Below, piece by piece: positions 882-21,934 of a DNA stretch of 64,000 nt. Under the pieces are notes generated by a model, which worked only from the letters and a program-made list of their open reading frames with translations, did no database searches and had not been told where the DNA came from. Within the stretch, counting starts at the first letter, position 1; each line of letters begins with the position of its first letter. The translations under genes and the position numbers were made by a program. Location of the stretch: the IMG/VR virus record IMGVR_UViG_3300025121_000014, positions 32,001 through 96,000 of that record; one strand, written 5' to 3'. The DNA comes from a virus. Its lineage: Duplodnaviria; Caudoviricetes.

Positions 882-1688
882 ATGATAATAAAGTTTAATG
901 AATATATATTGGAAGCAAAATTAACAGAAGGTTATGATGATTATATACGTCAATTTAATAGTATATATTCTTTAATTAAAGACATTGGTGGTACAGTTAA
1001 TCCAATTGAGTTGAAAGCTAAAAAATCTTTTTTAAAAAAAGATATAGATGCTTTTATAGAAAGAATAACAGAAGATAATATATCATCGACTGATATAGAT
1101 AAAATTCAACAATATATTAAAGATAAAAAGAAATTACTACATAAAAAATTATTTAATTTATTTGAAAATTTAGATAATATTAAAAGAGATATTAAAAGAA
1201 AAAAATTAAGAAAAACACAAGAAAGATTTGTCGAAGATAATCCAATAATTAATGGATTAAATAAAATAGATACATTAGAAAGTTTTTATAATAACATAGA
1301 GACTTTATTAAAAGATAATAGTAAAACTGATGTTCTATTTTTCTTATATGGTTTATTAGCATACTTCAATAATAATTCATTAAGTCGTGTAGATTTATTT
1401 AGTTTTATTTCTATGCATGATGATGAAATGACAGGAAATCTTATTAGAAATTTGAATTGGGAAATGGCAACATGGGATGATAAAAAATATGACCAATGGC
1501 ATTATATTGGTGGAGTTATGAATCAATTATTTAGGGGAACTGATAAATTTACAGATACAGATTTAAAAGAAGAAAATCCATATACTGATAGAGAAAATGC
1601 TATTTATGAAATATCAGATGAATTCTATTCATATATAAAATCAGTCTTAGTAAAATTTGTGGAAACTGGACAATTTGATTTAATTTAA
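882..1688 (+). CDS. Hypothetical protein with capsid-targeting-like N-terminus (MIIKFNEYILE)
   Basis: 268-aa ORF with TTAATATATA upstream at 849-858. It ends 7 bp before the CRISPR array. Confidence 0.75.
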   Translation: MIIKFNEYILEAKLTEGYDDYIRQFNSIYSLIKDIGGTVNPIELKAKKSFLKKDIDAFIERITEDNISSTDIDKIQQYIKDKKKLLHKKLFNLFENLDNIKRDIKRKKLRKTQERFVEDNPIINGLNKIDTLESFYNNIETLLKDNSKTDVLFFLYGLLAYFNNNSLSRVDLFSFISMHDDEMTGNLIRNLNWEMATWDDKKYDQWHYIGGVMNQLFRGTDKFTDTDLKEENPYTDRENAIYEISDEFYSYIKSVLVKFVETGQFDLI

Positions 1689-1695
1689 ATTATTA

Positions 1696-2325
1696 GTTGT
1701 ATCTACCTATCATTCCAAGGTTATATCCAACATTGGTAGTATAAATAGGGATGATTGTTATGTTGTATCTACCTATCATTCCAAGGTTATATCCAACGAA
1801 ACAAGTTTTTTCTGAATTACAGACACTGTTGTATCTACCTATCATTCCAAGGTTATATCCAACTAATTATAAAAATGAAAAGATAATGTAAGGGTTGTAT
1901 CTACCTATCATTCCAAGGTTATATCCAACACTGAATATTTATGGTATTCCGTCTGAAGCGTTGTATCTACCTATCATTCCAAGGTTATATCCAACTCGAT
2001 GGTAAATGCCTTAAACGGTATTAGAGTTGTATCTACCTATCATTCCAAGGTTATATCCAACCATAATCTAATAATGGAATATTACTCCCTCGTTGTATCT
2101 ACCTATCATTCCAAGGTTATATCCAACATATTGGGAAGGTGAACTATTAGCAGGTTCGTTGTATCTACCTATCATTCCAAGGTTATATCCAACGTATTAT
2201 GTGATACTTTTTGTTCTTTATCAGTTGTATCTACCTATCATTCCAAGGTTATATCCAACAAATGATATTTTTAATATACCTATGAACTTGTTGTATCTAC
2301 CTATCATTCCAAGGTTATATCCAAC
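1696..2325 (-). CRISPR. CRISPR array: 10 identical 36-bp repeats and 9 spacers of exactly 30 bp
   Basis: Repeat GTTGTATCTACCTATCATTCCAAGGTTATATCCAAC (+ strand) starts at 1696, 1762, 1828, 1894, 1960, 2026, 2092, 2158, 2224 and 2290 (66-bp period). Minus orientation is inferred from the adjacent effector and tracr-like region, not proven. Confidence 0.98.
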
Positions 2326-2476
2326 CTATGACCATTTAAATACTTAGTTTAAAGATAGTTAGTGAGTGCTTACTGAAATTAAAATATATAATAAAAATAC
2401 AAATGAAACATAAGTCTCTTTATTTTTTAATTTCTACCTCACCGTAAGGGCATACAATTGCCCCATCTAAATATTA
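2326..2476 (-). ncRNA. Candidate tracrRNA/leader between cas12f and the array
   Basis: Minus strand has the hairpin GGGCA-AUUGUA-UGCCC (2448-2463) and a 10/12 anti-repeat CTAACTATCTTT (2351-2362). Position and length are as expected for Cas12f1 tracrRNAs. Confidence 0.5.
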
Positions 2477-3739
2477 TCAAAGAACTTTTTCTTTATTTTT
2501 TAATTTATAATATTGTGTATTTTCATATTTATCAACATATAATTTTGATTTGGCAATATTATATGCTGCATTATAATCAGAATCTATATTTTCATTGTGT
2601 ATTTTACACTTATCATTTTGACATATAAATGTATCCCCATTTCTTTCCCCTATTTCCCCACATATAGAACATATTTGACTAGTATGATAAGGATCGACAA
2701 ATTTCAAGTTTATTCCATAAGAATCTACTTTATATTTTAACTTGTCTATAAAATTAGAAATTGGCCAATATCTAGAAAAAAATGAATTCTTATCAATATT
2801 TCTATTTAATAATTCCATATTAATCTGTTCTACTTTATACTTTATACAAAAATCAATAACCTGTTTACTTAATTTATGTAAAGCAGTATTAGTAAAATTA
2901 ATTTCTTTTTTTCTGATAGTGTCTAAATATTTTAATTTTCTATTTCTACCGTGTCCACCTTTTGCCATAACCATAGATTTCTGGTATTCTCTTCTTTTCT
3001 TATTAATATCCATCTTTACACGGATTAAATCATCAGAATGAATTGATTTTTGTACATGTATATTATCATTTAATCTTATTGATACAAATCGTCTAACACC
3101 TAAATCGATGCCACATACTCTACCTTTTACTTTTTCGTAATCTTCAGATTCTGTTTCATATGTAAATATTATATAATAATGTTTGTCTCTTTTATTGTAT
3201 GTTACGTTAAAAACTCTATTAATATTTAGTGATTTATCATTTTTATCCATTAATCTTTCTAATAGTTTTTTGTTACCACTTTTATCTTTACCAAATAATA
3301 GTTTAAAATCTAATCCATTTTTTATTCTTAATATGATATCATCATTTACATTATGAAAATTTGGATTAATCCCACCACTATTAAATTGGTATATAATAGG
3401 TGCTCCATATTTATATAATCTAGGTGTTCGTTTACCTTTAAATAATCCGTTTTTTATGTCATTAGAAAAATCTTTCTTAACCCTATGACATATATTAGAT
3501 AATATAGCTGTTGGGAATGTTGGATGCAAATCTCTTACAGAGTGATATACTTTTGTTGTTTTTGCAGATTTTACTGGAATAATACTTTCTGACAATTTTT
3601 GTTTTATAAATACCCATTCGTGTGAATATGCATCATTATATATTTTATTTGTTTGATACATTAAATTATTTATATAATCAAATGTATTTTTATTTAATGG
3701 CACTATTCTTATTTTTACTGCGGATATGTATTTATTCAT
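2477..3739 (-). CDS. cas12f: Miniature type V CRISPR effector, Cas12f1-like (TnpB-derived RuvC nuclease), 420 aa
   Basis: RuvC-I GIDLG, RuvC-II INMELL, Zn finger TSQICSICG...CQNDKC and RuvC-III DSDYNAA. The segment AKGGHGRNRKLKYLDTIRKKEINF resembles AsCas12f1 ARGGHGRDKRIKPIEQLRDKIANF as recalled. Directly adjacent to the array. Confidence 0.85.
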   Translation of the reverse strand: MNKYISAVKIRIVPLNKNTFDYINNLMYQTNKIYNDAYSHEWVFIKQKLSESIIPVKSAKTTKVYHSVRDLHPTFPTAILSNICHRVKKDFSNDIKNGLFKGKRTPRLYKYGAPIIYQFNSGGINPNFHNVNDDIILRIKNGLDFKLLFGKDKSGNKKLLERLMDKNDKSLNINRVFNVTYNKRDKHYYIIFTYETESEDYEKVKGRVCGIDLGVRRFVSIRLNDNIHVQKSIHSDDLIRVKMDINKKRREYQKSMVMAKGGHGRNRKLKYLDTIRKKEINFTNTALHKLSKQVIDFCIKYKVEQINMELLNRNIDKNSFFSRYWPISNFIDKLKYKVDSYGINLKFVDPYHTSQICSICGEIGERNGDTFICQNDKCKIHNENIDSDYNAAYNIAKSKLYVDKYENTQYYKLKNKEKVL

Positions 3740-3758
3740 ATTATTGTTTCTTTAATTA

Positions 3759-3790
3759 TAAAGATAAACTAAAAAATAATAAAAACCAAA
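3759..3790 (-). promoter_or_regulatory. Bacteroidota sigmaA-like promoter upstream of cas12f
   Basis: Minus strand TTTG-N20-TATCTTTA, one mismatch to the -33 TTTG / -7 TAnnTTTG consensus, about 20 nt upstream of the ATG. Confidence 0.5.
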
Positions 3791-3837
3791 TATTTTATAA
3801 AATATTTTATATATAGATGTAAAAATAAAAACATTAA

Positions 3838-6800: not shown

Positions 6801-6846
6801 TATATATAATTTAAAATTTAATAATCCTAAGAATGTTAGACTTTAA
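3838..6846 (+). CDS. Large hypothetical protein (1002 aa) with an SWCIA (PcfJ-like) motif and CTS-like N-terminus
   Basis: Long ORF containing CSIVGAETSWCIARD...QYIIYLTD. N-terminus is MLDFKLFE. Confidence 0.8.
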   Translation: MLDFKLFENVAQAKSFLRQNNIPETDSLYQLVRKSFKGKEGYVGWITKLIYRMLAFESNGKYLALDKNSLIDSTVNSSNIINNTLNRAKRQFDILLDYLSEKEVIDKLEKPVIEYETFEQFVDAFIIAEDKLKAKRIYDEFPAEQKKLININIDYKLLKQLHDKKNKKIFIKKISSYHDRKNLISRITAFINEVIDDNFNNKIKYLKNNKLEIVHQSEKDNIIIAKIFNYQQCSIVGAETSWCIARDSNTYSNYIKNDLDRQYIIYLTDKPPTDNESIIGVTFKLNSYYTAHYKDDAYLTESKLNELFEQRKVDKKIFKIKKSEINEHNIKNVNPYGLFKLGFTKDEIINKKGKEYLTGMQILLLKEMGFTKDEIKEYSHFRDPLEDIKKVGFTEEEIEELVPNLKQKNIEEFIEAKLSKEFIMKYINFDTLYVHSLLHMFTKEEILNNKQVYVESELDSFNQEQIKKYDLNNKVRLDGYTISVDELKKYIKTGEIYKIINRLEPKSIYLFKLINAGLNLNDLQQIKNLYEKLIDIDRDFYKKHCYKPKEETKTNEYRIYSSNTFYLDHTIKKLKIYNITPDDISLEKLEYVLNGISHLAVPRVVNFLIEQEYSYTEQEIKNFLLKIIHINVDKKELFKSGIEAGINFYPELMIFYLENNDVIDPREFDTAKNLLSEKYPDKWEIIEDKQKKAIFIKHTLRQAGYLAIGSQYDDFGDWDTERKDYALNLNWKNEMKGENEYLAYVATIIILALNDDWESLYKLPQWDWGDNTTNVGDSLDNYKVYLSYLVRTILGANVTKSYSKFRETDELTKNQISKIYTWIMNYVWPTIENKEQQEPELQLAYYLLDKKRWNDYLQRTKKKKMNYFRKDSYWISYSDKKIGTKEIKMTYRFYNIAQVVEYLCNDRKYINSPYYKSIPKTNMELDKLLFEFTDGITMGKKELKKTISTLYRINIWNDNKDRTKIINDIFNKYIPIINESIMTNYDNFIYNLKFNNPKNVRL

Positions 6847-6997
6847 ATTATTAGAATATTTAAATGCTTATAAAATAGATTATATTAATGATAATGATAG
6901 AAAAAGAAAACTTAAAAATATAGTTAATAATATATTCCAATTAAAAGAAAATACTATATCTAATTTTAATTTATTTAAGCATAAATTATTGATTTAA
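6833..6997 (+). CDS. 54-aa ORF starting with a copy of the preceding gene's 5' end (not in ORF track)
   Basis: Reads MLDFKLLEYLNAYKID...HKLLI*. Bases 6833-6852 are identical to 3838-3857 (atgttagactttaaattatt). Confidence 0.5.
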   Translation: MLDFKLLEYLNAYKIDYINDNDRKRKLKNIVNNIFQLKENTISNFNLFKHKLLI

Positions 6998-7324
6998 TTT
7001 TTTTCTTGGTATATAAGATGGTTCTTTTATACCATATTCTATAATTGATTTATATATCGGATTATTAAATTTATATAAAGTATTATCAGTATCAAATTTA
7101 GTTGTAATATATTTTTGTATATATACAAAATCTCTTTGAATATATGTTAATCTTTTATAATTTAAACTTATAAATATACATACAGGATAGTAAGAATTTG
7201 CTCTATTTCCGGAAAAACCAAGCCAATAAAAACCCTTATTAATAAGATATTTTTGTAGTTCATAATATTCATATTCATTAAAACACACAACTGCAATTGA
7301 TCCATATTCATATTTATATATCAT
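6986..7324 (-). CDS. Small paralogue 3 of a tandem family (C-terminal P-x-Y-x-P-R motif)
   Basis: MIYKYE...EPSYIPRKKLNQ, with ATGA overlap with the upstream paralogue. Confidence 0.75.
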   Translation of the reverse strand: MIYKYEYGSIAVVCFNEYEYYELQKYLINKGFYWLGFSGNRANSYYPVCIFISLNYKRLTYIQRDFVYIQKYITTKFDTDNTLYKFNNPIYKSIIEYGIKEPSYIPRKKLNQ

Positions 7325-7662
7325 ATCTTATATCTTGGTATATAATTTGGTACTTCAGTACCATATTTCAATATATGTTTAAGAATATTAATATTATTTT
7401 TATCATATATAAAAGTATTTATAAAATAATTATTATTTCTATTTCTGAAATTTATATATTCTCCTATATTTTTAAAAGAACTACCTTGCATGACGTGATA
7501 TGTAACAACTTTTTTATTTAAATAAATTAATAAATAAATTGGAAGTACATATGGAGTACTTAACATAACTGATATATTATTATCTACGAGAATGTTTTTA
7601 ATATAATTATAATCGATTATATCTATAACATTATATACTATAACATCATATTTAAATTTCAT
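7321..7662 (-). CDS. Small paralogue 2 of a tandem family
   Basis: MKFKYD...EVPNYIPRYKI, with ATGA overlaps on both sides. Confidence 0.75.
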   Translation of the reverse strand: MKFKYDVIVYNVIDIIDYNYIKNILVDNNISVMLSTPYVLPIYLLIYLNKKVVTYHVMQGSSFKNIGEYINFRNRNNNYFINTFIYDKNNINILKHILKYGTEVPNYIPRYKI

Positions 7663-8036
7663 TTTCTTTTACTTCTTGGTCTATAATCAGGAGTAGCAAT
7701 TTTAATACCTAAATTTATTATGTTTTTTAAAATGCTTAAATTATTTTTTTTATTAATTTTTTTATAAACAGTAGGATCTATATTATAATATATAATATTT
7801 CCATGTTCGTCATTAAATGTTGAAATTTTATTATTTCGTAAAAAATATCCATATATTGGATAATATATCGATATTTTTTTAACTATTTTAATTTGTAAAA
7901 AAATTACTAAATAATCATTATTAGATTCATAATTAGAAGTAAAACGATATCCTTTATTTATAAGATACGTTTTAATATCTTGAAAATCATCGTAATCTCT
8001 TGGTTTATAAATTACTACATTGTACTTATATTTCAT
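7659..8036 (-). CDS. Small paralogue 1 of a tandem family
   Basis: MKYKYN...ATPDYRPRSKRK. Confidence 0.75.
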   Translation of the reverse strand: MKYKYNVVIYKPRDYDDFQDIKTYLINKGYRFTSNYESNNDYLVIFLQIKIVKKISIYYPIYGYFLRNNKISTFNDEHGNIIYYNIDPTVYKKINKKNNLSILKNIINLGIKIATPDYRPRSKRK

Positions 8037-8088
8037 TCTTTCTTTTTTGACTTATGTGATGGTATCATAATATTATATTTATATATTG

Positions 8089-11189: not shown

Positions 11190-11714
11190 TTAATTATTTT
11201 TTTGTAAGAATTTCTTTTTTATTTGTTTACGATATTCTTCTCTTGATAATGTTTGATCAATAGAATATCTTTTGCCATTATTTTTTTCATCAGTAGCAAT
11301 CCAATTTTCTTCATTTTTTAATTGTTCGTTAATAATATTTTGATTTTTGTCTTCTGTTTGTTTTTCTTCAGTTTCAAAGTCATCTATTTTTCTAAGAGTT
11401 TCTAAGATATAATTTTTTAAATCCACAATATCTTCTTTTTTAAAAGTAATTTCATAAATATCATCATCTTTAAATATAATATATGAATCATTTTCCATTC
11501 TTACATCTTCATAAAAATTTATTCTATCTCCTATTCTACCGAATTTTAATATATCACGATTAAATAATCTTTTATATTTAATTGTGAAATCGTCTAATTT
11601 CCTAAACTCGTCTTTTGTGGATCCTACTATTTTTCGGGATTTACCAAAATCTAATGTAAAGAAATCCAATCCACGAAGATTTCTCAGAAAGTAAGTACTT
11701 GATACTATTATCAT
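11190..11714 (-). CDS. Hypothetical protein
   Basis: 174-aa ORF in the minus-strand operon leading to the amidase. Confidence 0.7.
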   Translation of the reverse strand: MIIVSSTYFLRNLRGLDFFTLDFGKSRKIVGSTKDEFRKLDDFTIKYKRLFNRDILKFGRIGDRINFYEDVRMENDSYIIFKDDDIYEITFKKEDIVDLKNYILETLRKIDDFETEEKQTEDKNQNIINEQLKNEENWIATDEKNNGKRYSIDQTLSREEYRKQIKKKFLQKNN

Positions 11715-11732
11715 ATGTAATTTATTATATTT

Positions 11733-12212
11733 TTAAAATGTTGATGAGTCTTCTAAATCACTATCAGAATCTGGTAATGTTTTAGCTGTTGCTTCCTCAC
11801 TTGTTTCTGAGTCTAATTCAGAAAATAATTCAAGAATTTTATCTTCGTTTATATCTTTTACATTAACATCTTTTCCTAGTGTTCTATAAAGATTTCCATC
11901 GCTATCATATTTTTTAACTTTAATGTAGCAATCTGTTAATTGGTCTTGTGCTACATCTTTTAATGAAATAATTATATATACTTGATAATGAAATTGATCA
12001 TCATCAAAATCAAACACTAAATTTTTATCTGGTTCATTTAAATTACTAATATTAATATCCCCTAGTGTAGCTCCATTAAGTGATAATGATCCATTTATAA
12101 ACCAATCATTAATATTTTTCGTTAATTCTTTAAAGAAAGATTGAATCATATAATCAGGTGTTTCAATATATTTCTCATTAAGGAATTCAGAATATTTTTT
12201 TATATTTTTCAT
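11733..12212 (-). CDS. Acidic hypothetical protein with CTS-like N-terminus (MKNIKKYSEFLNE)
   Basis: 159-aa ORF with the shared N-terminal motif. Confidence 0.75.
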   Translation of the reverse strand: MKNIKKYSEFLNEKYIETPDYMIQSFFKELTKNINDWFINGSLSLNGATLGDINISNLNEPDKNLVFDFDDDQFHYQVYIIISLKDVAQDQLTDCYIKVKKYDSDGNLYRTLGKDVNVKDINEDKILELFSELDSETSEEATAKTLPDSDSDLEDSSTF

Positions 12213-12519: not shown

Positions 12520-12885
12520 ATGAAAAATATAAAACAATTTGAACAATTTATTAATGATAATTTTAATAACCCGTTTAAAAGAAAAAACATAATTAGAATA
12601 ATTGAAAATCCACCAAAAGGTTCAATATATTCTGAACCACGAGAAAACGAGTTAGAATTTATTAAGTTAACTAATTTAGATAATGGTAGATGGAAAATAG
12701 AATTTAAAGATTATACTATGGAATATGGTTGGGGATTTTTTATTTATAATCAATTAGATAATGAAATTGAAGATATTGAAAGATATGGCTATGAACAACA
12801 ACAAATACCACATTATTTAGAACCAACAGAAGATACAATTATAGATATTAAAAAGATTATTCAAAAAAATAAAAAGAAGGTATGA
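12520..12885 (+). CDS. Hypothetical protein with CTS-like N-terminus (MKNIKQFEQFIND)
   Basis: 121-aa ORF with the shared N-terminal motif. Confidence 0.7.
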   Translation: MKNIKQFEQFINDNFNNPFKRKNIIRIIENPPKGSIYSEPRENELEFIKLTNLDNGRWKIEFKDYTMEYGWGFFIYNQLDNEIEDIERYGYEQQQIPHYLEPTEDTIIDIKKIIQKNKKKV

Positions 12886-13352
12886 AAAATATAAAAGGTT
12901 TTAATCAATTTTTAAATGAAGATGGTTCCACAACTGCTGTTGTAGGATCAGGAACTGCCGTAAGTGGTCCATCTTTTTCAAGTGTATCTGTTGCAGGAGT
13001 TAGCATAGACGGTGGGCATTCAACACAAGGGAGTAGTGGTGTATCTACATTAGGCAATGTATCTGGTATGGGAGATGTTGTTTCTGCTCAACCATCTGAT
13101 ACACCAGGTGATGTTGCTGGTAGTACTAAAGGATCAGGTGATATTGGACAAACTTTAAAACCATTTACTAAATCATTTCCTAATACAAGAAAGAAGAAAA
13201 AAGAAAAAAAGAAAAAAACTAATTCTGAAAAAGGAGCACAAATAGATAAATTTTACACTTCTAAATATTCAGAAAAATATATAAAATCTGGAAATGTAAT
13301 TCAAGATTGGAAAACATTTAATAAAGAAAAAAATGGTAATAAAAAAGTTTAA
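12882..13352 (+). CDS. G/S/T-rich low-complexity protein with CTS-like N-terminus (MKNIKGFNQFLNE)
   Basis: 156 aa with a G/S-rich middle and Lys-rich tail. ATGA overlap with the upstream gene. Confidence 0.7.
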   Translation: MKNIKGFNQFLNEDGSTTAVVGSGTAVSGPSFSSVSVAGVSIDGGHSTQGSSGVSTLGNVSGMGDVVSAQPSDTPGDVAGSTKGSGDIGQTLKPFTKSFPNTRKKKKEKKKKTNSEKGAQIDKFYTSKYSEKYIKSGNVIQDWKTFNKEKNGNKKV

Positions 13353-14467
13353 TATTTTTATAAATGAAAATATAACTAGTTTACTTAAAGGAAAATCTAA
13401 TGATGAAATGATTAAAGCATTAGAAGGTTTATCAAATAATAAGAAAATAGAATATATAATTGCATATCAATTAGATTATGATTTATTACCAAGAGATAAA
13501 AATGGTAGATGTATTTATCATAATAATGAAGATGAATATGGTGCTTATAGTTGTAATCTAACTGGTTATGGGATAAAAAAATTACCTGATAATTTAACAG
13601 TTCATGGTAATCTGATTTGTAATAATAACCCAGAATTAACTGAATTGCCTAAAGGATTAATCGTTAATGGTGATATGTATTTTTTTGATTATCCTAAAGA
13701 ATTAAAATTACCACATGATATACAATTAAGTGGAAAATATTATCATAGTATTAAAGGTAAAAAATTAATAATAGAAAATATAAAAGATTTACTTAAAGGT
13801 AAATCAGATGATGAAATTGAAAAAAAATTAAAAGTAAGTTCTGACGAAAATATAGCTCGTGGTGTGTTTAGTTATAATTTACCACTTAAATATTTACCTA
13901 AAAATTATGATAAATTAGTAAAAGATATTATTAAAGAAATAAAAGAACTTGTTAAAGAATATGGTGGTAATATTACTGTATATGATTTGGGTGTAGAAAG
14001 TATTGATTATGAAGGTGAAACACATTATTATGCAATATCTGTATTAACTACTGATTATGTATGGGTAGAGGAATATCTATTAACTGATTTTACTAAAAAT
14101 AGAACATATGAAGCACCATATGAAGAATTAAATTATTATCAATTAAGTGAAATAAAAGAAACAATAGAATGGGCAATTGGATCAGGAAATTTAGAACATA
14201 AATTATATGAAAGTGTTAAAGATTTATTAAAAGCAAAATCATATGAAGATGTTGAAAAACAATTAATTGGTTTATCGGATTTAGAAAGAATTATAAAAAT
14301 AGAAGAACACGATTTACCAAAAGAATATTTACCAAATAATTATAACGATATTAAAAAAATACTTATAAATGGTATTAAAAGCAAATTAAAACAGTTTAAT
14401 AATGTTTTAAATTTTTTAAATGATTTTGATTTACAAGACGAATTATATTTATACCCATATATTTTAT
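13333..14467 (+). CDS. 5' part of a modular LRR-containing CTS-like protein, interrupted by the TnpB element
   Basis: Three xE-(N/S)(I/V)xxLLKxKS modules and LPDNLTVHGNL repeats. It rejoins 15764-16308 in frame when the IS is removed (559 aa total). The annotated ORF runs on into the IS left end to 14562. Confidence 0.7.
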
Positions 14468-15763
14468 ACATCTTGTCAAAGAAAACCACCAAATCTTCAG
14501 TTTGGTGGATGAATTTGACTTCCAAAAACGGAAAAAACAGACTTTTAACTTTTAATATATAATTTAAAGGAAAAATAAAATATCTTTAAAAATGTTAAAA
14601 TCATATAAATACAGAATATACCCAAATCAAGCCCAAAAAGAACTTCTTTCAAAGATTTTTGGTCAAGTAAGATTTGTATATAATCTTGGTTTAGAAACTA
14701 AAATAACAGCATATACAGGAAACAAAAAAAATATTGATGTGTTTGATTTAAATAAGCAAATTAAAGAATTAAAAGATAATGAATGTGAATGGTTAAAAGA
14801 AAGCCCATCACAAGCACTTCAAATGAGTATGTCTAATCTAGATAATGCTTATACAAATTTCTTTAGAGGAAAAGGTTTTCCAAAATTTAAGAATAAATAT
14901 TCAAAACAATCATTTCAACTACCACAAGGTGTTTGGTTATCAGATAATAATAAACAAATTTTTATACCGAAATTAAAATTCACCGATATAGATTTACATC
15001 GTGAATTTAAAGGCGATATTAAAACTGTAACAGTAAGTAAATCAATAACTAATAAATATTATATATCAATTTTAACAGATAATTTACAACCTAAACCAGA
15101 AAAAAAACCAATTAAGTTAAATACAACAATTGGAATTGATTTAGGGATTAAAGATTTTGCTATCACTTCAGATGGAAAGAAATTCAAGAACCACGATTTC
15201 TTTAAATCTGCTTTAAGAGAACTAAGGGTTGAACAGCGATCTCTTAGTAGGAAAAAGAAAGGATCAAACCATTACAATCAACAAAAAATGAAAGTCGCTT
15301 TAATACACGAACACATTAAAAATCAAAGAGAAGATTATTTACATAAAATCAGTAAATATTTAGTTGATAATTATGACACTATATGTATTGAAAATCTTGG
15401 TGTATCTAATATGATTAAAAATCATAAATTATCTAAAGCAATATCAGATATGGGATGGAATAAATTTAAATCTATGCTTGATTATAAATGTGAATGGTAT
15501 GGTAAAAATTTAAGTGTGATTGGTAGATTTGATCCGTCAAGTAAATCATGTAGTTCTTGTGGGACAATAAATAAAGAATTAACATTAAAAGATAGAGAAT
15601 GGGTTTGTAAAGAGTGTGGTGTTAAACACGATAGGGATATTAATGCTGCAATAAATATAAGAAATTTTGGGTTGAGGAACCAACCTAGCGTCACACAAAG
15701 TGAATGGTTGCATTGTGCTTGTGGCGTAGAAACACACAAATCTTCAGTTTGTGTGTAGTTCAT
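14468..15763 (+). mobile_element. IS200/IS605-family TnpB-only (IS1341-like) element, 1296 bp
   Basis: Preceded by TTTAT (14463-14467). Left-end hairpin gtcaaagaaaaccaccaaatcttcagtttggtggatgaatttgac; right-end hairpin gaaacacacaaatcttcagtttgtgtgtagttcat. No tnpA. Confidence 0.85.
14592..15758 (+). CDS. tnpB: TnpB RNA-guided endonuclease
   Basis: N-terminal YKYRIYP HTH, GIDLG, ICIENL, CSSCG...CKECG and HDRDINAA. The stop codon lies inside the right-end hairpin. Confidence 0.95.
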   Translation: MLKSYKYRIYPNQAQKELLSKIFGQVRFVYNLGLETKITAYTGNKKNIDVFDLNKQIKELKDNECEWLKESPSQALQMSMSNLDNAYTNFFRGKGFPKFKNKYSKQSFQLPQGVWLSDNNKQIFIPKLKFTDIDLHREFKGDIKTVTVSKSITNKYYISILTDNLQPKPEKKPIKLNTTIGIDLGIKDFAITSDGKKFKNHDFFKSALRELRVEQRSLSRKKKGSNHYNQQKMKVALIHEHIKNQREDYLHKISKYLVDNYDTICIENLGVSNMIKNHKLSKAISDMGWNKFKSMLDYKCEWYGKNLSVIGRFDPSSKSCSSCGTINKELTLKDREWVCKECGVKHDRDINAAINIRNFGLRNQPSVTQSEWLHCACGVETHKSSVCV

Positions 15764-16308
15764 CTACTATAAGTAAAATTGTTAAAATAAAACAATATGG
15801 TTTAGATAAAAAATATATGCCATCAAAAGATGAAATTAAAAAAGAATTTGATAATTGGGGTAATAGTATACATAGTACAGATTTAAAAATTTATCATATA
15901 ATTATATTAGAATTACCATTTGATTTATTACCTATAAGAAAAGAACCGAGTAAATTAAAAACAATTTATAAAGGGAATAAAAATAAAATTATTTGTAGTA
16001 CAGAGTTAGATGTAAGTTATAAAAATATAACTAAATTGCCAGATAATTTAGTTATTTATGGTGATTTGAATTGTAGTAGTAATCAATTAACTGAATTACC
16101 AAAAGGATTAGAAGTATTTGGAAATTTAAAAGCAAGTTATAATAATTTAACCGAATTTCCAGATGATACAATAGTACACGGATATTTAGATATAACTGGT
16201 ACTAAAATAACTAAAATACCTAAAACAGCAGTAATTTGGGAAGCTATATATTCTGATTATAAGTTAAATTATTTTAACCCAAAATCTGATGAAGAACATA
16301 TATTATAG
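15764..16308 (+). CDS. 3' part of the IS-interrupted LRR protein
   Basis: STISKIVKIKQYGLDKKYMPS matches the helical module of neighbouring paralogues, and ITKLPDNLVIYGDL-type repeats follow. The annotated GTG at 15751 lies inside the IS end. Confidence 0.7.
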
Positions 16309-16311
16309 AAT

Positions 16312-17016
16312 ATGAAAACATTTAAACAATTTATTAATGAAAATGTAAAAGATTTACTAACAGGAAAATCTGATGATGTTATTAGTAAAGAATTAGATAA
16401 ATTAAAAATACAAGATAAATTAAGATATATTCAAAAATATGATTTATCTGATAAATTTATGCCATCTGATAAGGAAATTAAAAATTATTTAAATAAATTC
16501 AGCACATATCAAATTATTGATAAAATACATTATTTAAATTTACCTAAAAAATTTATGCCAACTGATGAAGAAATTAAAAAATTAAAACCTTCGAAATTAT
16601 TAGAATTTATATCAAGAGGATGTATTTCTAAAAAATTTGAACCTACAAAAAAAGATTTAAATACATTTATGGAAAATATACCTAATGATATTAAAAATAT
16701 ATTGCAAATATATATTGATGCTGACGATAATTATGAATCAACAGGATTTTTTTTAAATTTTATTGATCAATTTACTACTTGTAAAAATTATTATAAATAT
16801 ATAATAGATATTGTTAATACTCACATAGAAGATTATTCTGACCATGAACCTAATCCATATTCACATATTAAATCTGATCAAGAAAAACTAAATTTTATGG
16901 ATTCTGATTTACTAATAGAATTTGTTGGTAATGGTATTTTTTATATTGATAGTAACACATATAATCATTTTATAGAAGATTTGAAAAAAACTAGTTGGAA
17001 TGATATAGTGGAATAG
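16312..17016 (+). CDS. Hypothetical protein with CTS-like N-terminus (MKTFKQFINE-NVKDLLTGKS)
   Basis: 234 aa. This is the closest match to the T4 IPII/IPIII CTS MKTYQEFIAE. Confidence 0.8.
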   Translation: MKTFKQFINENVKDLLTGKSDDVISKELDKLKIQDKLRYIQKYDLSDKFMPSDKEIKNYLNKFSTYQIIDKIHYLNLPKKFMPTDEEIKKLKPSKLLEFISRGCISKKFEPTKKDLNTFMENIPNDIKNILQIYIDADDNYESTGFFLNFIDQFTTCKNYYKYIIDIVNTHIEDYSDHEPNPYSHIKSDQEKLNFMDSDLLIEFVGNGIFYIDSNTYNHFIEDLKKTSWNDIVE

Positions 17017-17053
17017 ATTTAACAAGTTAACGAAAATATTTATTAATTTTTTT

Positions 17054-17091
17054 AAAAATCTATTTTTAATATATATTAAAAATAGATTTTT
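17054..17091. repeat. Perfect 38-bp palindrome centred on a TTAATATATA motif
   Basis: aaaaatctatttttaatat|atattaaaaatagattttt. Confidence 0.9.
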
Positions 17092-17095
17092 TGCA

Positions 17096-17539
17096 ATGAT
17101 TTATAAATTTAGTGAATTTGAAAGATTAAATGAGGAAACAAAACCAAGTAAAATATATAAAAATGTTATGTTTGATGATTACGAAATTAGAATTGGTCGT
17201 AATAGTCAGGTCAATGATATATTAACATTTGAATATGCTAATGATAATGATTTATGGTTTCATGTTAGTGGATACCCTGGTTCACATGTTGTAATAAAAG
17301 TTAAGGAAAATCAAGAAACACCAAACAAAGTTATTTTAGAAGCTTCTAGATTAGCTATTTATAATTCTAAGGCAAAAGGAAAAGGATTAGTTAAAGTAGT
17401 CTATACAGAAAGAAAAAACGTTACTAAGACCGATAAACATAATCCAGGGCAAGTTAGTGTTGATTATAGTAAATCAAAATTTATAAAAATAGAAGTTTTA
17501 AAAAAATATAATATAAATGAAACATATAAAAATATTTAA
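17096..17539 (+). CDS. Stand-alone NFACT-R (DUF814, RqcH-type) RNA-binding domain protein
   Basis: IRIGRNSQVNDILTF...DLWFHVSGYPGSHVVIK...ASRLAIYNSKAK...VVYTERKNV. CTS-like N-terminus MIYKFSEFERLNE. Confidence 0.85.
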   Translation: MIYKFSEFERLNEETKPSKIYKNVMFDDYEIRIGRNSQVNDILTFEYANDNDLWFHVSGYPGSHVVIKVKENQETPNKVILEASRLAIYNSKAKGKGLVKVVYTERKNVTKTDKHNPGQVSVDYSKSKFIKIEVLKKYNINETYKNI

Positions 17540-18050
17540 AGAATTTTTTGATAAAGAAAAATTAGATAAAATACCAAATCAATATTTAAATACAATTAAT
17601 GAAAATGTAAAAAATGTTCTTCTACCTAAATCAGATGATGAAATTAAAAAAGAATTATCTAAATTAGATGTATACGATAGAATAGAAGTTATTACTAAAA
17701 ATAATTTATCACCAGAATATTTACCATCAAAAGAAGAAATTGCAAAAGCACATGAAGAAAAATATAATTCATATAGCGATAAATGGTCAAAAGGATATTT
17801 TAATACTGAAACACTTAAAGTTAAAACACCATATTGGAATATTTATATTCCAAAATGTAAAAGTTGTGATGAAGTTACCGAATTAAAAAATTGTTTTATA
17901 GACAGACAAATGATAGGAAATGTTTATCAAACATTATGTAATTGTAGTAAATGTAATAAATATATATTACTTGACGAAGACAAATATGATGATTTAATGA
18001 GATATATAGAAAATAATAAAGAAGTAAAAGGAAATAATGATAAACTATAA
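17517..18050 (+). CDS. CTS-like protein with a C-terminal Zn-ribbon
   Basis: MKHIKIFKEF...INENVKNVLLPKSDDE; CKSC...CNCSKC. Confidence 0.75.
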   Translation: MKHIKIFKEFFDKEKLDKIPNQYLNTINENVKNVLLPKSDDEIKKELSKLDVYDRIEVITKNNLSPEYLPSKEEIAKAHEEKYNSYSDKWSKGYFNTETLKVKTPYWNIYIPKCKSCDEVTELKNCFIDRQMIGNVYQTLCNCSKCNKYILLDEDKYDDLMRYIENNKEVKGNNDKL

Positions 18051-18084
18051 AAGGTTTAAATAAATTAAAATATTAGTATAGTTA

Positions 18085-19140
18085 ATGAATACATTTAAAC
18101 AATTTAATGAAAATATAAGAGATGTTCTTTTACCTAAAAGTAAAGAAGAAATTGGTAAAGCATTACAAAGATTTACAAATAATGATGATTTAATAAGATA
18201 TATAATAAAATATAAATTGCCATATGAATTTTTACCTAGAAATGAAGAAGGTAGATGTGTTATTAATAAAAATCTTTATTATGCTTCTTCAAATATTGAA
18301 ATATTACCGGATAATTTTACTGTTAATGGTATGTTAGATATATCATATTCTTCAATAAAAGAATTACCAGATGGTTTAATAGTTAGAGATGATTTATGGT
18401 GTTTAGATACAGATATAACTAAATTAAAAGATGATACAATAATTGGAGGTAAAACATTCTTTAAAACAACTTATAAAGTATATGAAAGTGTAAAAAATGT
18501 TCTTCTACCTAAATCAATTGATAAAATTAAAGATGCAATGAAAGGTAAAAATATTTATTCTAAAATATATACAATTAAAAATACACCAGATTTAGAAAAA
18601 ATTTTTAGATATCCATCTAAAAAAAAATTATATGATGTAATAAATAAACCATTTGAAAATTATGAACAAGTTTATAAAGATATAATAGATGATAAAAAAA
18701 TCAAATTTAGTAAAGTAAGAATGAATGATGTAGAATATTTTCAGTTATATCAATTAATAGTTGATTATATTAAAGTAATATGTAACACCGAAAAAAAAAT
18801 ATTTGAATTTGCACCTAATACACATGTTATTAGAGTTTTTGGTGTAATTTTAAATCATTTGGAATCTGAATATATATTTAAACCTGTTTATAAGGAAAAC
18901 GGATTTGATATTTTTAAATTAGCAAAAAAAATTTTTAATAGAGATTTATTATTGCAAAACGGTCATATAGAAGTAAATGATGCCTATAAAAAATATACAA
19001 AAAGTCAAATTAGAATAGATATTAATTCAATTAACTATAAATTTAGTGATATAACTTCACCATATTGGTCAAATTTACATGGTTGGGAGATAGAAAGAAA
19101 ATATGTTAAGAAACACGAAAGAAAATTCGGTAAAACATAA
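18085..19140 (+). CDS. Two-module CTS-like protein with LRR repeats
   Basis: MNTFKQFNENIRDVLLPKS, IEILPDNFTVNGML repeats, and an internal second module YESVKNVLLPKS. Confidence 0.78.
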   Translation: MNTFKQFNENIRDVLLPKSKEEIGKALQRFTNNDDLIRYIIKYKLPYEFLPRNEEGRCVINKNLYYASSNIEILPDNFTVNGMLDISYSSIKELPDGLIVRDDLWCLDTDITKLKDDTIIGGKTFFKTTYKVYESVKNVLLPKSIDKIKDAMKGKNIYSKIYTIKNTPDLEKIFRYPSKKKLYDVINKPFENYEQVYKDIIDDKKIKFSKVRMNDVEYFQLYQLIVDYIKVICNTEKKIFEFAPNTHVIRVFGVILNHLESEYIFKPVYKENGFDIFKLAKKIFNRDLLLQNGHIEVNDAYKKYTKSQIRIDINSINYKFSDITSPYWSNLHGWEIERKYVKKHERKFGKT

Positions 19141-19172
19141 TTAATATATAAATAAAAAATAATTGTGTTTTA

Positions 19173-19565
19173 ATGAAAAATATCAAAAACTTTGACAAAT
19201 TTATAAGTGAAAGTATTACTAATTTATTAACGTCTAAACCAAACGATGAAATCATTAAAAAACCTATAGGATATATGACATATAGAATATTAAAATTCGT
19301 TAGTGAACATCCAGAAGGTATTAGACGTAAAGATTTAATAAAAATGATATTTGATATAAAATACGAAGACACTTTAATAACTTATGATACAAGTAAACAT
19401 TCTAGGTTTTATAGTAGTTTCTTTTCTAATACTAATTTATTAAATAAAACAGGTAAAGGAAATAATGCTAAATGGTATATAAACGCAAATGGTTTAGATA
19501 AATTAAAATATTATGAAAAAAAATTTAAAGATTATGATATTGAAAAAATTAAAAAAATAATTTAA
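19173..19565 (+). CDS. CTS-like protein with a possible winged-helix domain
   Basis: MKNIKNFDKFISE; ILKFVSEHPEGIRRKDLI...WYINANG. Confidence 0.7.
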   Translation: MKNIKNFDKFISESITNLLTSKPNDEIIKKPIGYMTYRILKFVSEHPEGIRRKDLIKMIFDIKYEDTLITYDTSKHSRFYSSFFSNTNLLNKTGKGNNAKWYINANGLDKLKYYEKKFKDYDIEKIKKII

Positions 19566-19570
19566 ATATT

Positions 19571-21079
19571 ATGTTACTTAAAAAATATAATGATTTTATG
19601 ATTGACAAATTACTTTTAGAATCATTAAATGAATTTAAATTTATTTTATCAGGTCGTTTAAAAAATATATTAAAAAATATAAATAGTGAAATATCTGATG
19701 CATTACTAGCATTACATAATGATGATGATTATAAAAGTAAAAAAACGTTTATAGATATTAATGAAAGAGATGATGAAACTTTAACATTAATTCAAGCAAA
19801 TAAAGCTACTGAAATATTAAAAATAGATAATCAAGAATATTTAGATAATAATCCTTATTCAATACAGCGATATAAAAAATTAAAATCTGATCATGATGTA
19901 TATAATAAACATAGAATATCCGTAAGAGTAGGTCGTTTAATTAATTATTTATTTCCTAATAGATTTCCTAGTGCTTCACCAACAGATATTACCAAAAAAT
20001 CAAAAGATATTGAAAATTTTGTTAGAATGTATAAATCTATTGTTTTTCAAAACGAAAGATTTAAATTATTAGATTTGGTAAATGGTGATAATATATCATA
20101 CTGGTATGATTGTAATAATTATGATAGTAGTGATTCTGGATCATTAGGTAGTTCTTGTATGGCAAGTGTATATGAAGAATATTTTGAAATATATGTTAAT
20201 AATCCAAATACTATACAATTATTAATATTATATTCTGATAATTCTAAATCATATATATCTGGAAGAGCCTTAGTTTGGACATTATATGAACCAGAAAATG
20301 GTAGAAAATATATGGATAGAATTTATACAAATGATAGTTCAGATGAACAAGTATTTATTGATTATGCTAAAGAAAATGGTTGGTTATTTAGATCATCACA
20401 AGGTTGGAATAATACTGATATTGTTGATTCATTAACAAATCAAACTATTAATACGAATTTAATGGTTCGTACAACTAAAGACGATTATAGTTATTATCCT
20501 TGGATGGATACTATGTGTTATTATAGTCCGGAACTTGGAATTTTATCTAATAAATCAAATAATTTACGACTATATCTGCAATCACAAGATGGTTCAAGTT
20601 CAACAAATAGTGATTATTATGAAAATGAAGATGATACTTATATATTTAGTAAATATGAAGGGGAAGATATACTTCGAAGAACCGCAGTATATTGTTATTA
20701 TGGAGATGATTGGGTTCATACATCAGTAGCCAAAAGAGTATTTAATGCGGGATTAGTAACAAATCCAGATGGGACTAATAGAATTTATTCTATTCCTGTA
20801 CATCCTGATGTTGTTAGATCATATATTCCTGATATTAATTATGATAAACATTTTCCAAAGAAAAAATGTATTTGGTCAATTTATTTAAATGCTTGGATTT
20901 TTAAAGATAGTAAAGTAAAAATATATCTAGATGTAAATAGAGAAAAATTTGGATATGACCACAAAAAACGTAAAGATATAAATTTTGGAAAAGTAGGTAG
21001 AGTTCATTATGTAATTGAATTACTTGAAAAAAATGAAAATGATCAATGGAAATTAAAAAAAGAAAATGAAAAAGTTTAA
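19571..21079 (+). CDS. Phage hypothetical protein with SCM/RALVW/MDRIY/YPWMDT motifs and CTS-like N-terminus
   Basis: 502 aa. Motif set recalled from large-phage hypothetical proteins; function unknown. Confidence 0.75.
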   Translation: MLLKKYNDFMIDKLLLESLNEFKFILSGRLKNILKNINSEISDALLALHNDDDYKSKKTFIDINERDDETLTLIQANKATEILKIDNQEYLDNNPYSIQRYKKLKSDHDVYNKHRISVRVGRLINYLFPNRFPSASPTDITKKSKDIENFVRMYKSIVFQNERFKLLDLVNGDNISYWYDCNNYDSSDSGSLGSSCMASVYEEYFEIYVNNPNTIQLLILYSDNSKSYISGRALVWTLYEPENGRKYMDRIYTNDSSDEQVFIDYAKENGWLFRSSQGWNNTDIVDSLTNQTINTNLMVRTTKDDYSYYPWMDTMCYYSPELGILSNKSNNLRLYLQSQDGSSSTNSDYYENEDDTYIFSKYEGEDILRRTAVYCYYGDDWVHTSVAKRVFNAGLVTNPDGTNRIYSIPVHPDVVRSYIPDINYDKHFPKKKCIWSIYLNAWIFKDSKVKIYLDVNREKFGYDHKKRKDINFGKVGRVHYVIELLEKNENDQWKLKKENEKV

Positions 21080-21140
21080 ATAATTTATAAATGAAAATTT
21101 AAAATATAATAAGTATAACTTAAAAATAAATGAAAAATAA
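21066..21140 (+). pseudogene. Degenerate CTS stub (MKKFK*FINEN...)
   Basis: Near-identical to 21404ff (MKKFKQFINEN) but with CAA changed to TAA. Total 25 codons. Confidence 0.55.
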
Positions 21141-21395
21141 ATGAAAAGCATAAAAAAATTTAATAATTTCTTAAATGAAGGATTAAGCACAAGTAATAAA
21201 TTAGAAATAAAATATGTTAATATACATGGTGAAGAAATGATATTAAAATATGATGGAGTAGAAAGTACATTTTTTCATAGTGACATAACTGACATACCTA
21301 TTCCCTTACGATCTACTACTTTAGATGATTTTATTTTAAATAATGAAGAACAAAAAGTAATTGATTGTTTTTTATCTTTAGTGGATATAAATTAA
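21141..21395 (+). CDS. Small CTS-like protein (MKSIKKFNNFLNE)
   Basis: 84-aa ORF with the shared N-terminal motif. Confidence 0.7.
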   Translation: MKSIKKFNNFLNEGLSTSNKLEIKYVNIHGEEMILKYDGVESTFFHSDITDIPIPLRSTTLDDFILNNEEQKVIDCFLSLVDIN

Positions 21396-21403
21396 AAAAG
21401 AAA

Positions 21404-21934
21404 ATGAAAAAGTTTAAACAATTCATAAATGAAAATATTAAAGATTTACTTAAAGGTAAAACAGAAGAAGAAATAAATAAAAATATAATTAATTTAAGTT
21501 CTTATGAAAAATTAAAATTAGCAAAAAAATATGAATTTAAATTATCAGATGTCGATGAAAAAGATGCTATTAAATCTGCGCTTATATATAATCCTGAAGA
21601 ATTAATTTTAGATTTAAAATATGATTATGATGATTTATCTAAAATAGTTTCTGATGAAGAAATTAAAAAAGGATTAAAAAGTATTACAAAACGTTTATTT
21701 AACATTATGAAAGGTAATAACAGAGAAAATGCATTTGAAGAATTAGAAAAAGTAGTATTTTATCTTTTTAAAAATGGATATCTATATGATAACACAGATA
21801 CACTTGGTAATTTATGGTTTAAACATAAAACATATGATAAATATAAAGGTGGTAGCACTACTTGGAATGGATATAATACATTAAGTGATGCGATAGATTA
21901 TGTTACTAGGATGCAAAAATTAAATAATTCATAA
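21404..21934 (+). CDS. CTS-like protein (MKKFKQFINE-NIKDLLKGKT)
   Basis: Start moved from the track's TTG at 21365 to ATG 21404, where the motif begins. Confidence 0.75.
   Translation: MKKFKQFINENIKDLLKGKTEEEINKNIINLSSYEKLKLAKKYEFKLSDVDEKDAIKSALIYNPEELILDLKYDYDDLSKIVSDEEIKKGLKSITKRLFNIMKGNNRENAFEELEKVVFYLFKNGYLYDNTDTLGNLWFKHKTYDKYKGGSTTWNGYNTLSDAIDYVTRMQKLNNS

Follow-up and report, generated by a model that had tools for sequence, protein, structure and literature searches.

A probable T4-type capsid-targeting tag at the N-termini of many proteins of a very large groundwater phage

A short N-terminal peptide shared by numerous genes in the 64,000-nucleotide stretch of phage DNA analysed here (the window) is likely to be a capsid-targeting and cleavage tag of the T4 type, carried by many more genes than the three that encode the internal proteins of T4. 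The window is part of a very large groundwater phage related to the 642-735 kb Mahaphage genomes; a 438-aa protein is 54% and 45% identical in the relatives LR756501 and LR756502. We take our results to suggest that dozens of different proteins, versus three in T4, are packed into the virions of this phage and of its giant relatives. The principle has been known since the 1990s; the novelty lies in the scale, in the host range of the mechanism and in a link between the tag and the prohead scaffold.

Form and specificity of the N-terminal motif

The consensus M-x-[IVL]-K-K-[FY]-x-x-[FY]-[IL]-N-E heads eight genes between positions 882 and 21934. A scoring matrix trained only on the tags of LR756501 and LR756502, with the window genes held out, recovered all eight (882, 12212 on the minus strand, 12882, 13333, 16312, 19173, 21141 and 21404; 15.6-24.4 bits), the best window gene outside this set scoring 3.8 bits. 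Five further genes (12520, 17096, 17517, 18085 and 19571) begin with variants: Asp replaces Glu at the cut position in 12520 and 19571, 17096 has a two-residue insertion that is conserved in 54 homologues, 18085 lacks one residue and 17517 is degenerate. Every tag in the window begins at the first ATG, and the N-termini quoted in a preliminary description of this DNA were all found where it had placed them, with an in-frame stop a few codons before the ATG in each case.

Among the 46 genes of the window, strong tags occur in 8 of the 26 located before 22 kb versus none of the 20 after it (p = 0.006), and none of these 20 genes (22-64 kb) carries a variant tag. Two AT-rich phages, G (30% GC, 638 genes) and K (30% GC, 219 genes), served as controls: against the 8 strong tags in 46 window genes they have none in 857 (Fisher p = 2e-11), and no gene of theirs reached 12 bits with the matrix trained on LR756501 and LR756502. 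The motif is specific to N-termini, matching none of the 176 internal Met positions of the window and yielding, in LR756501, 49 N-terminal matches versus 10 internal ones among roughly 210,000 positions (densities that differ 118-fold). In 78 matching IMG/VR stretches every exact match to the DNA pattern begins an ORF of 62-649 aa, some of these matches forming tandem four-gene arrays, and the motif is retained in contigs spanning 18-44% GC.

Exactly four positions of the tag are constrained, and they are the same as positions 4 and 7 (targeting) and 8 and 10 (cleavage) of the T4 tag. Both targeting positions hold F or Y in all eight strong and all five variant tags, the first aromatic residue lying 1-6 residues after the tag start throughout, as befits an N-terminal signal. 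The tag ends in (I/L)-x-E in the eight strong cases, in 17096 and, at a second site, in 17517; in 18085 it ends in F-N-E. Selection on the tag acts at the amino-acid level, since the aromatic positions are encoded by TTT, TTC, TAT and TAC and the I/L position by nine codons, and the 5' ends of the tagged genes are not DNA copies of one another. Mean column identity among 38 tagged proteins of LR756501 amounts to 9%, with Glu alone invariant. The tag lacks the hydrophobicity typical of secretion signals.

Tagged genes and the bodies behind the tags

The tagged genes, all on the plus strand except that at 12212, encode proteins of very different make-up (a slash marks the putative cut). The product of 882..1688 (268 aa; MIIKFNEYILE/A; 19.7 bits) has an orphan body, with no Pfam or PHROG family and no usable Atlas match. 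The minus-strand gene 11733..12212 (159 aa; MKNIKKYSEFLNE/K; 21.5 bits) encodes a protein with an acidic C-terminus, whose LR756502 counterpart has retained the tag (MKIRKFTEFINE) on a body 29% identical; gene order, with an adjoining amidase gene, is conserved in LR756501. The variant tag of 12520..12885 (121 aa; MKNIKQFEQFIND/N) scores only 3.8 bits because of the Asp at its cut position. It is followed by 12882..13352 (156 aa; MKNIKGFNQFLNE/D; 15.6 bits), with a G/S-rich body and a Lys-rich tail, and a tagged G-rich gene (MKRVITFTEYLNE/S) occupies the matching position in LR756501. Further along, 21141..21395 (84 aa; MKSIKKFNNFLNE/G) scores 22.2 bits, and 19571..21079 (502 aa; variant MLLKKYNDFMID/K) belongs to a large virus-only family: its 100 nearest Atlas clusters are 100% viral, none with a Pfam family, and some of its paralogues and orthologues in LR756501 and LR756502 are tagged (e.g. 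MVKKYFEFINE). The sequence TAATATATA lies 32 nt upstream of 882 and 31 nt upstream of 19173 and, more generally, 28-39 nt upstream of the tagged units 882, 17096 and 19173 and of eight tail-fibre-region genes; it is regular in position only, its 25 occurrences versus 19.9 by chance in AT-rich DNA being no excess.

BLAST groups the genes at 13333, 15817, 16312, 17517, 18085 and 21404 as paralogues. A module directly behind the tag, E/N-[IV]-K-D-L-L-x-G-K-S-x-D-E-I, was matched as a pattern in 13333, 17517, 18085, 19173 and 21404 and was discerned by eye in 16312; it is repeated within 13333 and 18085. The protein of 13333..14562 (409 aa; MVIKKFNIFINE/N; 21.5 bits) has three copies (residues 16, 152 and 297), with IIE/N and LYE/S in front of the internal ones, as well as an LRR-like stretch. 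The gene listed above as 15817 (15751..16308) is an untagged, LRR-like paralogue, 35% identical to residues 22-145 of the 13333 protein and weakly matched by Pfam LRR_1; a TnpB element (14592-15758) directly precedes it and occupies the expected place of its 5' end. The tag of 16312..17016 (234 aa; MKTFKQFINE/N; 21.8 bits) is the nearest of the set to MKTYQEFIAE/A of T4, as read from NC_000866. The degenerate start of 17517..18050 (177 aa; MKHIKIFKEFFDKE) is followed by TINE/N and the module at residue 33; the protein has a Cys-rich C-terminus and no family match in Pfam or PHROG. Two module copies follow the shortened tag of 18085..19140 (351 aa; MNTFKQFNE/N), and 21404..21934 (176 aa; MKKFKQFINE/N) has the top score of the window, 24.4 bits. 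The protein of 19173..19565 (130 aa; MKNIKNFDKFISE/S; 18.7 bits) shares nothing with this family except its module-like stretch after the tag.

The gene at 17096..17539 (147 aa; variant MIYKFSEFERLNE/E) is the clearest case of a tag on a recognizable domain, residues 25-121 matching Pfam NFACT-R_1 (3e-18). The tag is kept in the 54 homologues, at least 90% of which have Glu13. An AlphaFold2 model gives residues 1-16 low confidence, versus scores above 90 for the domain, which starts at about residue 20, so that the tag is predicted to lie outside the confidently folded domain. In LR756502 the NFACT-R homologue directly follows the major capsid gene and its tag is internal; two other homologues (P0017 and P0067) likewise have tags at internal domain boundaries. 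No other tagged body in the window gave an informative family match that would point to the anti-defence role offered as an example in the preliminary description.

By sequence comparison, six or seven window genes are paralogous and have the post-tag module in common, leaving about eight independent bodies. Similarity beyond the tag is confined to the six BLAST paralogues and, through the module, 19173, and at least seven tagged bodies have no detectable similarity to one another. The earlier picture of about 15 unrelated proteins sharing a tag is thereby narrowed to eight strong and five variant tags on partly related bodies, and what was called a large expandable cassette is in part one paralogous family, with tags also found genome-wide in the relatives. 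Of the labels given to the bodies, NFACT-R and G/S-rich hold up, the latter by direct inspection, LRR is weak, and Zn-ribbon and wHTH find no database support; the NFACT-R protein, whose tag stands apart from the folded domain, agrees with the idea that captured cargo received a grafted tag.

By the strict pattern each relative has 16-42 tagged genes, and the matrix finds up to 49; these make up about 2-5% of all genes and are dispersed over the whole genome, including a methyltransferase, a radical SAM enzyme and a nucleotidyltransferase. Some of these proteins may stay unpackaged, given that the set is some ten times the three of T4 and includes enzymes. Among orthologue pairs of LR756501 and LR756502 the strict tag is kept in 2 of 14, most partners still being tag-like.

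Head module, scaffold repeats and the match to T4

Both LR756501 and LR756502 encode, in T4 order, a portal (Portal_T4, 236 bits), a gp21-like domain that keeps its His (GEFDHPD) and Ser (VSSRAAG), and Gp23. The same portal, protease and gp23 arrangement is found on a third related contig from IMG/VR, and Portal_T4 is present in four of the five large contigs that carry tags and have a completeness of 48% or more. By extension from these relatives, the phage of the window presumably possesses a T4-type head module. In the relatives, protease and scaffold are fused, the scaffold consisting of 11-14 tandem units of 14 residues (N-I-x-Y-S-E-Y-I-A-E-N-L-D-K), all of which show the pattern of the tag, [FY]-x-x-[FY]-[ILV]-x-E. 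A proteome-wide scan for internal occurrences of this pattern placed the protease-scaffold fusion first in both relatives (14 and 11 sites), and the fusion of the third contig has 13 sites, no other ORF in the 20 kb that were scanned having more than one. The scaffold protein of T4, gp22, itself has a tag-like start, LKEQLIAE/A. The tag, sharing its pattern with the scaffold units, looks like one such unit placed on cargo.

In T4 (NC_000866), IPII and IPIII begin with MKTYQEFIAE and IPI with MKTFKEF. Mutagenesis there assigned residues 4 and 7 to targeting and residues 8 and 10 to processing, and Asp at position 10 stops cleavage and spares targeting (PMC9026906). Applied to T4, the relatives-trained matrix returned IPIII and IPII as sole matches (15.2 bits; next 3.8); applied to P-SSM2, it ranked PSSM2_115 and PSSM2_194 first. 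The latter (T4-GC190) begins with MKSFSQFLTE and S-SCSM1 ORF91 with MKSFLQFLKE, and according to the accounts in PMC3037559 and PMC9602691 the enzyme family of these two was detected by mass spectrometry in purified S-SM1, S-SCSM1 and S-CBWM1 virions. The homology to the T4 capsid-targeting sequence put forward in the preliminary description is thus supported by several independent computational lines: the T4 genome, the mutagenesis map, the matrix, the head module and the cyanophage virions.

Interpretation and comparison with known systems

In the mechanism that we propose, the short flexible N-terminal peptide would dock a new protein on the scaffolding core of the assembling prohead through its two aromatics, equivalent to T4 positions 4 and 7; a gp21-type serine protease would then cut after [IL]-x-Glu (T4 positions 8 and 10), and the mature protein would remain in the head with the DNA and probably enter the host at infection. 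Binding, cleavage, packaging and delivery are steps that we infer for this phage. A more tentative proposal, possible but short of probable, is that phages of the Mahaphage type use scaffold mimicry to equip their virions with a "starter proteome" of dozens of different proteins: the tag would amount to one 14-residue scaffold repeat unit, so that any protein gaining it would assemble with the scaffold, the fused protease would free the cargo in the head, and internal tags at domain boundaries would turn part of the cargo into polyproteins to be cut up in the head.

The resemblance of the tag to the scaffold's own repeat unit would equally suit proteins that act in the prohead core only, as assembly or scaffold-accessory components that are degraded or expelled at maturation and never delivered as effectors; gp22 of T4, with its similar start, is degraded, and a possible cut site before each internal module copy would chop the proteins up. 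We hold this to be unlikely, however, in that the bodies are diverse folded domains or enzymes (NFACT-R, methyltransferase, radical SAM enzyme) rather than scaffold-like, a tagged cyanophage enzyme occurs in mature purified virions, and T4 proteins with this tag remain in the head and are then injected (PMC3012670). The unusually large number of tagged genes might instead point to some other linear signal, for a phage compartment, membrane, secretion or regulated degradation, whose likeness to T4 is convergent. Such a signal is quite improbable given the match at all four functionally mapped T4 positions, the co-occurrence of the motif with a T4-type head module, the 11-14 repetitions of the same pattern in the prohead scaffold, the tagged enzyme seen in virions, and a tag that is not hydrophobic as secretion signals are.

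Nor does common descent readily explain the shared N-terminus as a domain of one multigene family instead of a transferable signal. Six to seven window genes are indeed paralogous, sharing at least 50 aa after the tag, and their family recurs on another IMG/VR contig (L117); yet the dissimilar bodies in the window, the 9% column identity and sole invariant Glu in LR756501, the still other bodies behind T4 and cyanophage tags and the position of the tag outside the folded NFACT-R domain make this reading very improbable. That AT-rich genomes often have MKK-type starts might suggest a nucleotide-level feature of AT-rich translation starts (an A-rich, unstructured 5' coding region) and no protein signal, but this is scarcely tenable: it is contradicted by the control genomes G and K, with zero genes at or above 12 bits, and by the codon analysis, conserved positions using many synonymous and F/Y-swapping codons, and the motif persists from 18 to 44% GC.

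Should the tag do here what it does in T4, sequence alone would suffice to list the proteins that the largest known phages, all of them uncultivated, package and probably inject, and candidates for first-minute takeover and counter-defence would thus be at hand; the recurrent nucleotidyltransferase in cyanophage virion proteomes would be explained as well. Were the scaffold-mimicry reading true, such sequence-only listing of injected proteins would extend over uncultivated giant phages and cyanophages. The likeness of the tag to a scaffold repeat unit offers a concrete loading rule, and the T4 protein-delivery toolkit could gain new tag variants.

Phages of the phiKZ type cut at (S/A/G)-x-E and remove longer propeptides. 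We know of no description of a common short targeting peptide of the present kind in them. Such giants, e.g. SPN3US, resemble the present case in their large heads, tens of packaged proteins and a gp21-related protease that removes propeptides after Glu (PMC5694885, PMC7411985, PMC10052503). The cyanophage NMNAT/cytidylyltransferase (T4-GC190) shares its tag start and presence in purified virions with what is proposed here, but occurs once per genome, unlike the many tagged window genes; so far as the accounts in PMC3037559 and PMC9602691 go, their authors drew no link to a targeting tag and reported no cleavage.

The closest parallel is the T4 capsid-targeting sequence itself (Mullaney and Black 1996, as summarized in PMC9026906 and PMC3012670), which like the window tags is N-terminal, 10-13 residues long, of the form M-K-x-[FY]-x-x-F-[IL]-x-E with a small or polar residue next, and combines aromatics at the targeting positions with I/L and Glu at the gp21 cleavage positions in front of diverse bodies. 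The portal, gp21 and gp23 module accompanies it in T4 and, for the window tags, is known from the genomes of relatives. Differences are the number of tagged proteins (three in T4, eight to thirteen in 21 kb of the window, 16-49 in the relatives depending on the criterion), the P2 residue (Ala in T4, Asn or Lys in the huge phages), the huge-phage cargo, which includes enzymes and reaches about 750 aa in length, and the union of protease and scaffold in one polypeptide; the huge-phage tags, moreover, are known from sequence alone. The hypervariable internal-protein loci of T-even phages (Repoila et al. 1994, as summarized in PMC3012670 and PMC9026906) likewise combine a conserved tag with fast-changing unrelated bodies, tandem genes and few orthologues between relatives. 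As these summaries present them, those loci encode few small basic proteins, whereas the tags of the relatives are genome-wide and the window cluster is partly a paralogue expansion with a post-tag module of its own.

Occurrence and constraint of the N-terminal tag

GC content across the window is very low, at 19-34%. Its tag-bearing region, 882-21934, holds about 26 mostly small genes and is followed, from 22 to 64 kb, by genes for giant tail-fibre-like proteins. A simple pattern for the tag (Met, 1-6 residues, then [FY]xx[FYL][ILMF]x[ED]) occurs in 10 of the 46 non-overlapping genes of the window, all ten before 22 kb, and at none of the 176 internal Met positions of the window; in every tagged window gene an in-frame stop lies a few codons upstream of the first ATG, at which the tag begins. 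Window DNA is present in groundwater metagenome runs. Its relatives include LR756501 (735 kb) and LR756502 (642 kb), which encode proteins 54% and 45% identical, respectively, to the 438-aa protein of the window (22097-23413); they are the largest genomes in the Mahaphage clade, with Bacteroidetes as predicted hosts (PMC7162821). A related-locus search of IMG/VR with the same 438-aa protein found none, exact DNA matching against IMG/VR and JGI metagenomes for the rest of the genome drew a blank, and GenBank phages gave no match by megablast with 11-22 kb of the window or by tblastn with two tagged proteins of 234 and 147 aa.

Both relatives were compared as whole genomes, with T4, cyanophage P-SSM2 and two AT-rich phages that are not T4-like (G and K) as controls. 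Genes matching a loose tag pattern number 51 in LR756501 and 22 in LR756502 and are dispersed genome-wide; in LR756501 the density of the tag at N-termini is 118 times the internal density. Alignment on the Glu residue revealed constraint at more positions than the search pattern required, with the consensus M-x-[IVL]-K-K-[YF]-x-[EQ]-F-[IL]-[NK]-E, the next residue being S, A, N, E or G. A position matrix trained on the tags of LR756501 and LR756502 only, with the window left out, gave eight window genes 15.6-24.4 bits (next, 3.8), ranked IPIII and IPII top in T4 at 15.2 bits (next gene, 3.8) and placed PSSM2_115 (17.3) and PSSM2_194 (16.6) at the top of P-SSM2, the highest scores being 4.3 in phage G and 11.7 in phage K (matrix-positive genes in the window versus phages G and K, Fisher p = 2e-11). 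An explanation of the tag at the nucleotide level is rejected in view of these control genomes and of codon use: all four Phe and Tyr codons are found at the aromatic positions and nine codons at the Ile/Leu position, which shows that the constraint acts on the protein. Nor are the 5' ends of the tagged window genes duplicates of a single DNA segment.

The tag also occurs in other phage contigs. An exact degenerate DNA pattern encoding M-K-K-[FY]-x-x-F-I-N-E matched 78 contig stretches in IMG/VR (18-44% GC), each time at the start of an ORF (62-649 aa), and among 14 large tag-bearing contigs, five reach a completeness of 48% or more, four of them with Portal_T4. Six contigs (L097, L103, L104, L118, L136 and L157) bear four-gene tandem arrays of tagged genes. 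We note that these arrays, on contigs of 21-24% GC, consist of genes of about 70-146 aa spaced by some 400 bp, with starts of the form MKKY(K/N)(E/Q)FINE and an upstream GCAAATAAATTTAA element in common.

Proteins behind the tags and their genomic setting

The preliminary description took the bodies behind the tags to be unrelated. This is borne out for seven of them (the products of window genes 882, 12212, 12520, 12882, 17096, 19571 and 21141), which have no mutual similarity, but not for 13333, 15817, 16312, 17517, 18085 and 21404, which are paralogues by BLAST. A post-tag module, E/N-[IV]-K-D-L-L-x-G-K-S-x-D-E-I (the slash marking the supposed cut site), is matched in 13333, 17517, 18085, 21404 and, as a module-like stretch, 19173, and was recognised by eye in 16312; 13333 has three copies and 18085 two, each internal copy being preceded by a possible cut site (IIE/N, LYE/S, VYE/S). 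The module is absent from LR756501 and LR756502 and present in an IMG/VR contig (L117). The domain labels first given to the bodies survived in part: NFACT-R was upheld for 17096 (3e-18), the leucine-rich repeat was weak, and neither Pfam nor PHROGs returned any other family for the tagged bodies. Atlas look-alikes place the 502-aa protein (19571) in a large, uncharacterised family confined to viruses; the same search with the 268-aa protein (882) returned nothing. Among 38 tagged LR756501 proteins mean column identity is 9% and the Glu is the sole invariant residue, and Pfam recognised a methyltransferase, a radical SAM enzyme, a nucleotidyltransferase and an Ig domain, one each, among them.

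The NFACT-R protein has 54 tag-bearing homologues (35-77% identity), at least 90% of which retain Glu13. In an AlphaFold2 model built from their alignment, confidence is low over residues 1-16 and exceeds 90 across the domain, which begins near residue 20; being conserved and outside the modelled fold, the N-terminal peptide behaves like a linear signal. The LR756502 homologue is encoded directly 3' of the capsid gene and has its tag internally, at a domain boundary, as do two metagenomic NFACT-R homologues, and such internal tags may serve as internal cut sites.

The element TAATATATA occurs 25 times in the window against 19.9 expected, and a promoter argument from its overall count was dropped because that count is not above chance. 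Thirteen copies nevertheless lie in the sense direction 28-39 nt before start codons (window 850-50591), among them those of three tagged units (882, 17096 and 19173) and eight tail-fibre-region genes. Judged by this fixed distance, the element is likely to be a phage promoter, and its placement would fit, without proving, co-expression of tagged units with virion genes.

Several other features of the window deserve mention. Genes of the tail-fibre region are assembled from common modules (23703-25100 and 27847-29565 are 48% identical; 25144-26661, 50611-52302 and 54930-61040 have in common the N-terminus MAKI(N/D)QF..G and C-terminal blocks), and one ORF there reaches 3059 aa. Two TnpB (IS200/605 OrfB) genes, 14592-15758 (+) and 36136-37353 (-), are 46% identical; the former separates two tagged-family paralogues, the downstream one of which (15751-16308) is without a tag. 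Within 1696-3739, a CRISPR-like array with ten identical 36-nt repeats (GTTG...CAAC) and 30-nt spacers adjoins a minus-strand gene for a TnpB/Cas12f-like protein of 420 aa (Pfam Cas12f1-like_TNB, 1e-15; OrfB_IS605), and no CRISPR adaptation genes were found within the window. Three adjacent small paralogues without the tag (6986-8036, minus strand; 112-125 aa) start MK(F/Y)KY.. or MIYKYEY.

A protease-scaffold fusion in the relatives

The head genes of both relatives follow the T4 order: a Portal_T4 gene (Pfam, 236 bits in LR756501 and 196 in LR756502), a gp21-like domain (23-24 bits, under the Pfam cut-off) and a Gp23 capsid gene (83 and 96 bits). Aligned to T4 gp21, the protease-like domain keeps the catalytic His (GEFDHPD; GELNHPP in T4) and Ser (VSSRAAG; VSSRGLG in T4) and has an N-terminal L-I-V-E similar to the L-I-E of T4; phmmer of the full-length protein against PDB sequences gave no gp21 match. 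The protease occupies the first 200 residues of a protein of 700-810 aa, the mid-part of which consists of 11-14 tandem 14-residue repeats, N-I-x-Y-S-E-Y-I-A-E-N-L-D-K (LR756501, L009:13913-16333; LR756502, 225272-227371). When every protein of the two genomes was scanned for internal [FY]xx[FY][ILV]xE, this fusion came top, with 14 sites in LR756501 and 11 in LR756502, the runners-up having 7 and 2. The tags of the relatives resemble the repeat unit of the scaffold itself. Portal, fusion and capsid genes are arranged alike in an independent IMG/VR contig (G011), where the fusion has 13 sites (L233:5470-7902), and the fusion family counts more than 1600 metagenomic members (1643 matches with the G011 query), certain of which carry PF03420 and PF20034.

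About 11 kb gained upstream of the window from encoding contigs did not reach a protease-like region, and none of the 120 fusion homologues listed, of 1643, lies on the 232,944-bp contig bearing the NFACT-R gene of the window. LR756501 also encodes a second, small gp21-like paralogue (11314-11850, minus strand) in which the catalytic His is replaced by Tyr and Ser-Ser by Arg-Pro; gene order in this region, which also contains a mini ORF with weak similarity to Portal_T4 (15166-15351), is conserved with the DNA directly upstream of the window.

Possible capsid targeting in cyanophages, and the T4 precedent

For one of the tagged families, 443 cyanophage records contain homologues. PSSM2_194 of P-SSM2 (158143-159417; T4-GC190, annotated as cytidyltransferase) starts MKSFSQFLTE, and its homologue in S-SCSM1, the NMNAT ORF91 (88819-90048), starts MKSFLQFLKE. 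Purified S-SM1 virions were found to contain T4-GC190 (PMC3037559), and the S-SCSM1 virion proteome includes ORF91, with relatives likewise found in two other cyanophages; the authors had no explanation for a metabolic enzyme in the virion (PMC9602691). A T4-like tag would account for the repeated, puzzling finding of these proteins in virion proteomes.

On balance, the best explanation for the window tags is that they act as T4-type signals for capsid targeting and cleavage, a reading we consider probable. The T4-type targeting principle is already known; more novel, and put forward tentatively as somewhat short of an even chance, is scaffold mimicry combined with a virion-borne 'starter proteome'. 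Our literature search found no mention of capsid targeting combined with huge phages or megaphages. In the translated T4 genome, IPII and IPIII start MKTYQEFIAE and IPI starts MKTFKEF.... A review of Black's work (PMC9026906) states that residues 1-10 of IPIII are enough for loading, that residues 4 and 7 are the main determinants of targeting and residues 8 and 10 those of processing, and that Asp at position 10 prevents cleavage while leaving targeting intact. If these rules transfer, the two Asp-ending window tags (12520 and 19571) would therefore be loaded yet remain uncut. Positions 4, 7, 8 and 10 of the T4 tag are exactly those constrained in the huge-phage tag. The window phage and its relatives have many more tagged genes than the three internal proteins of T4.
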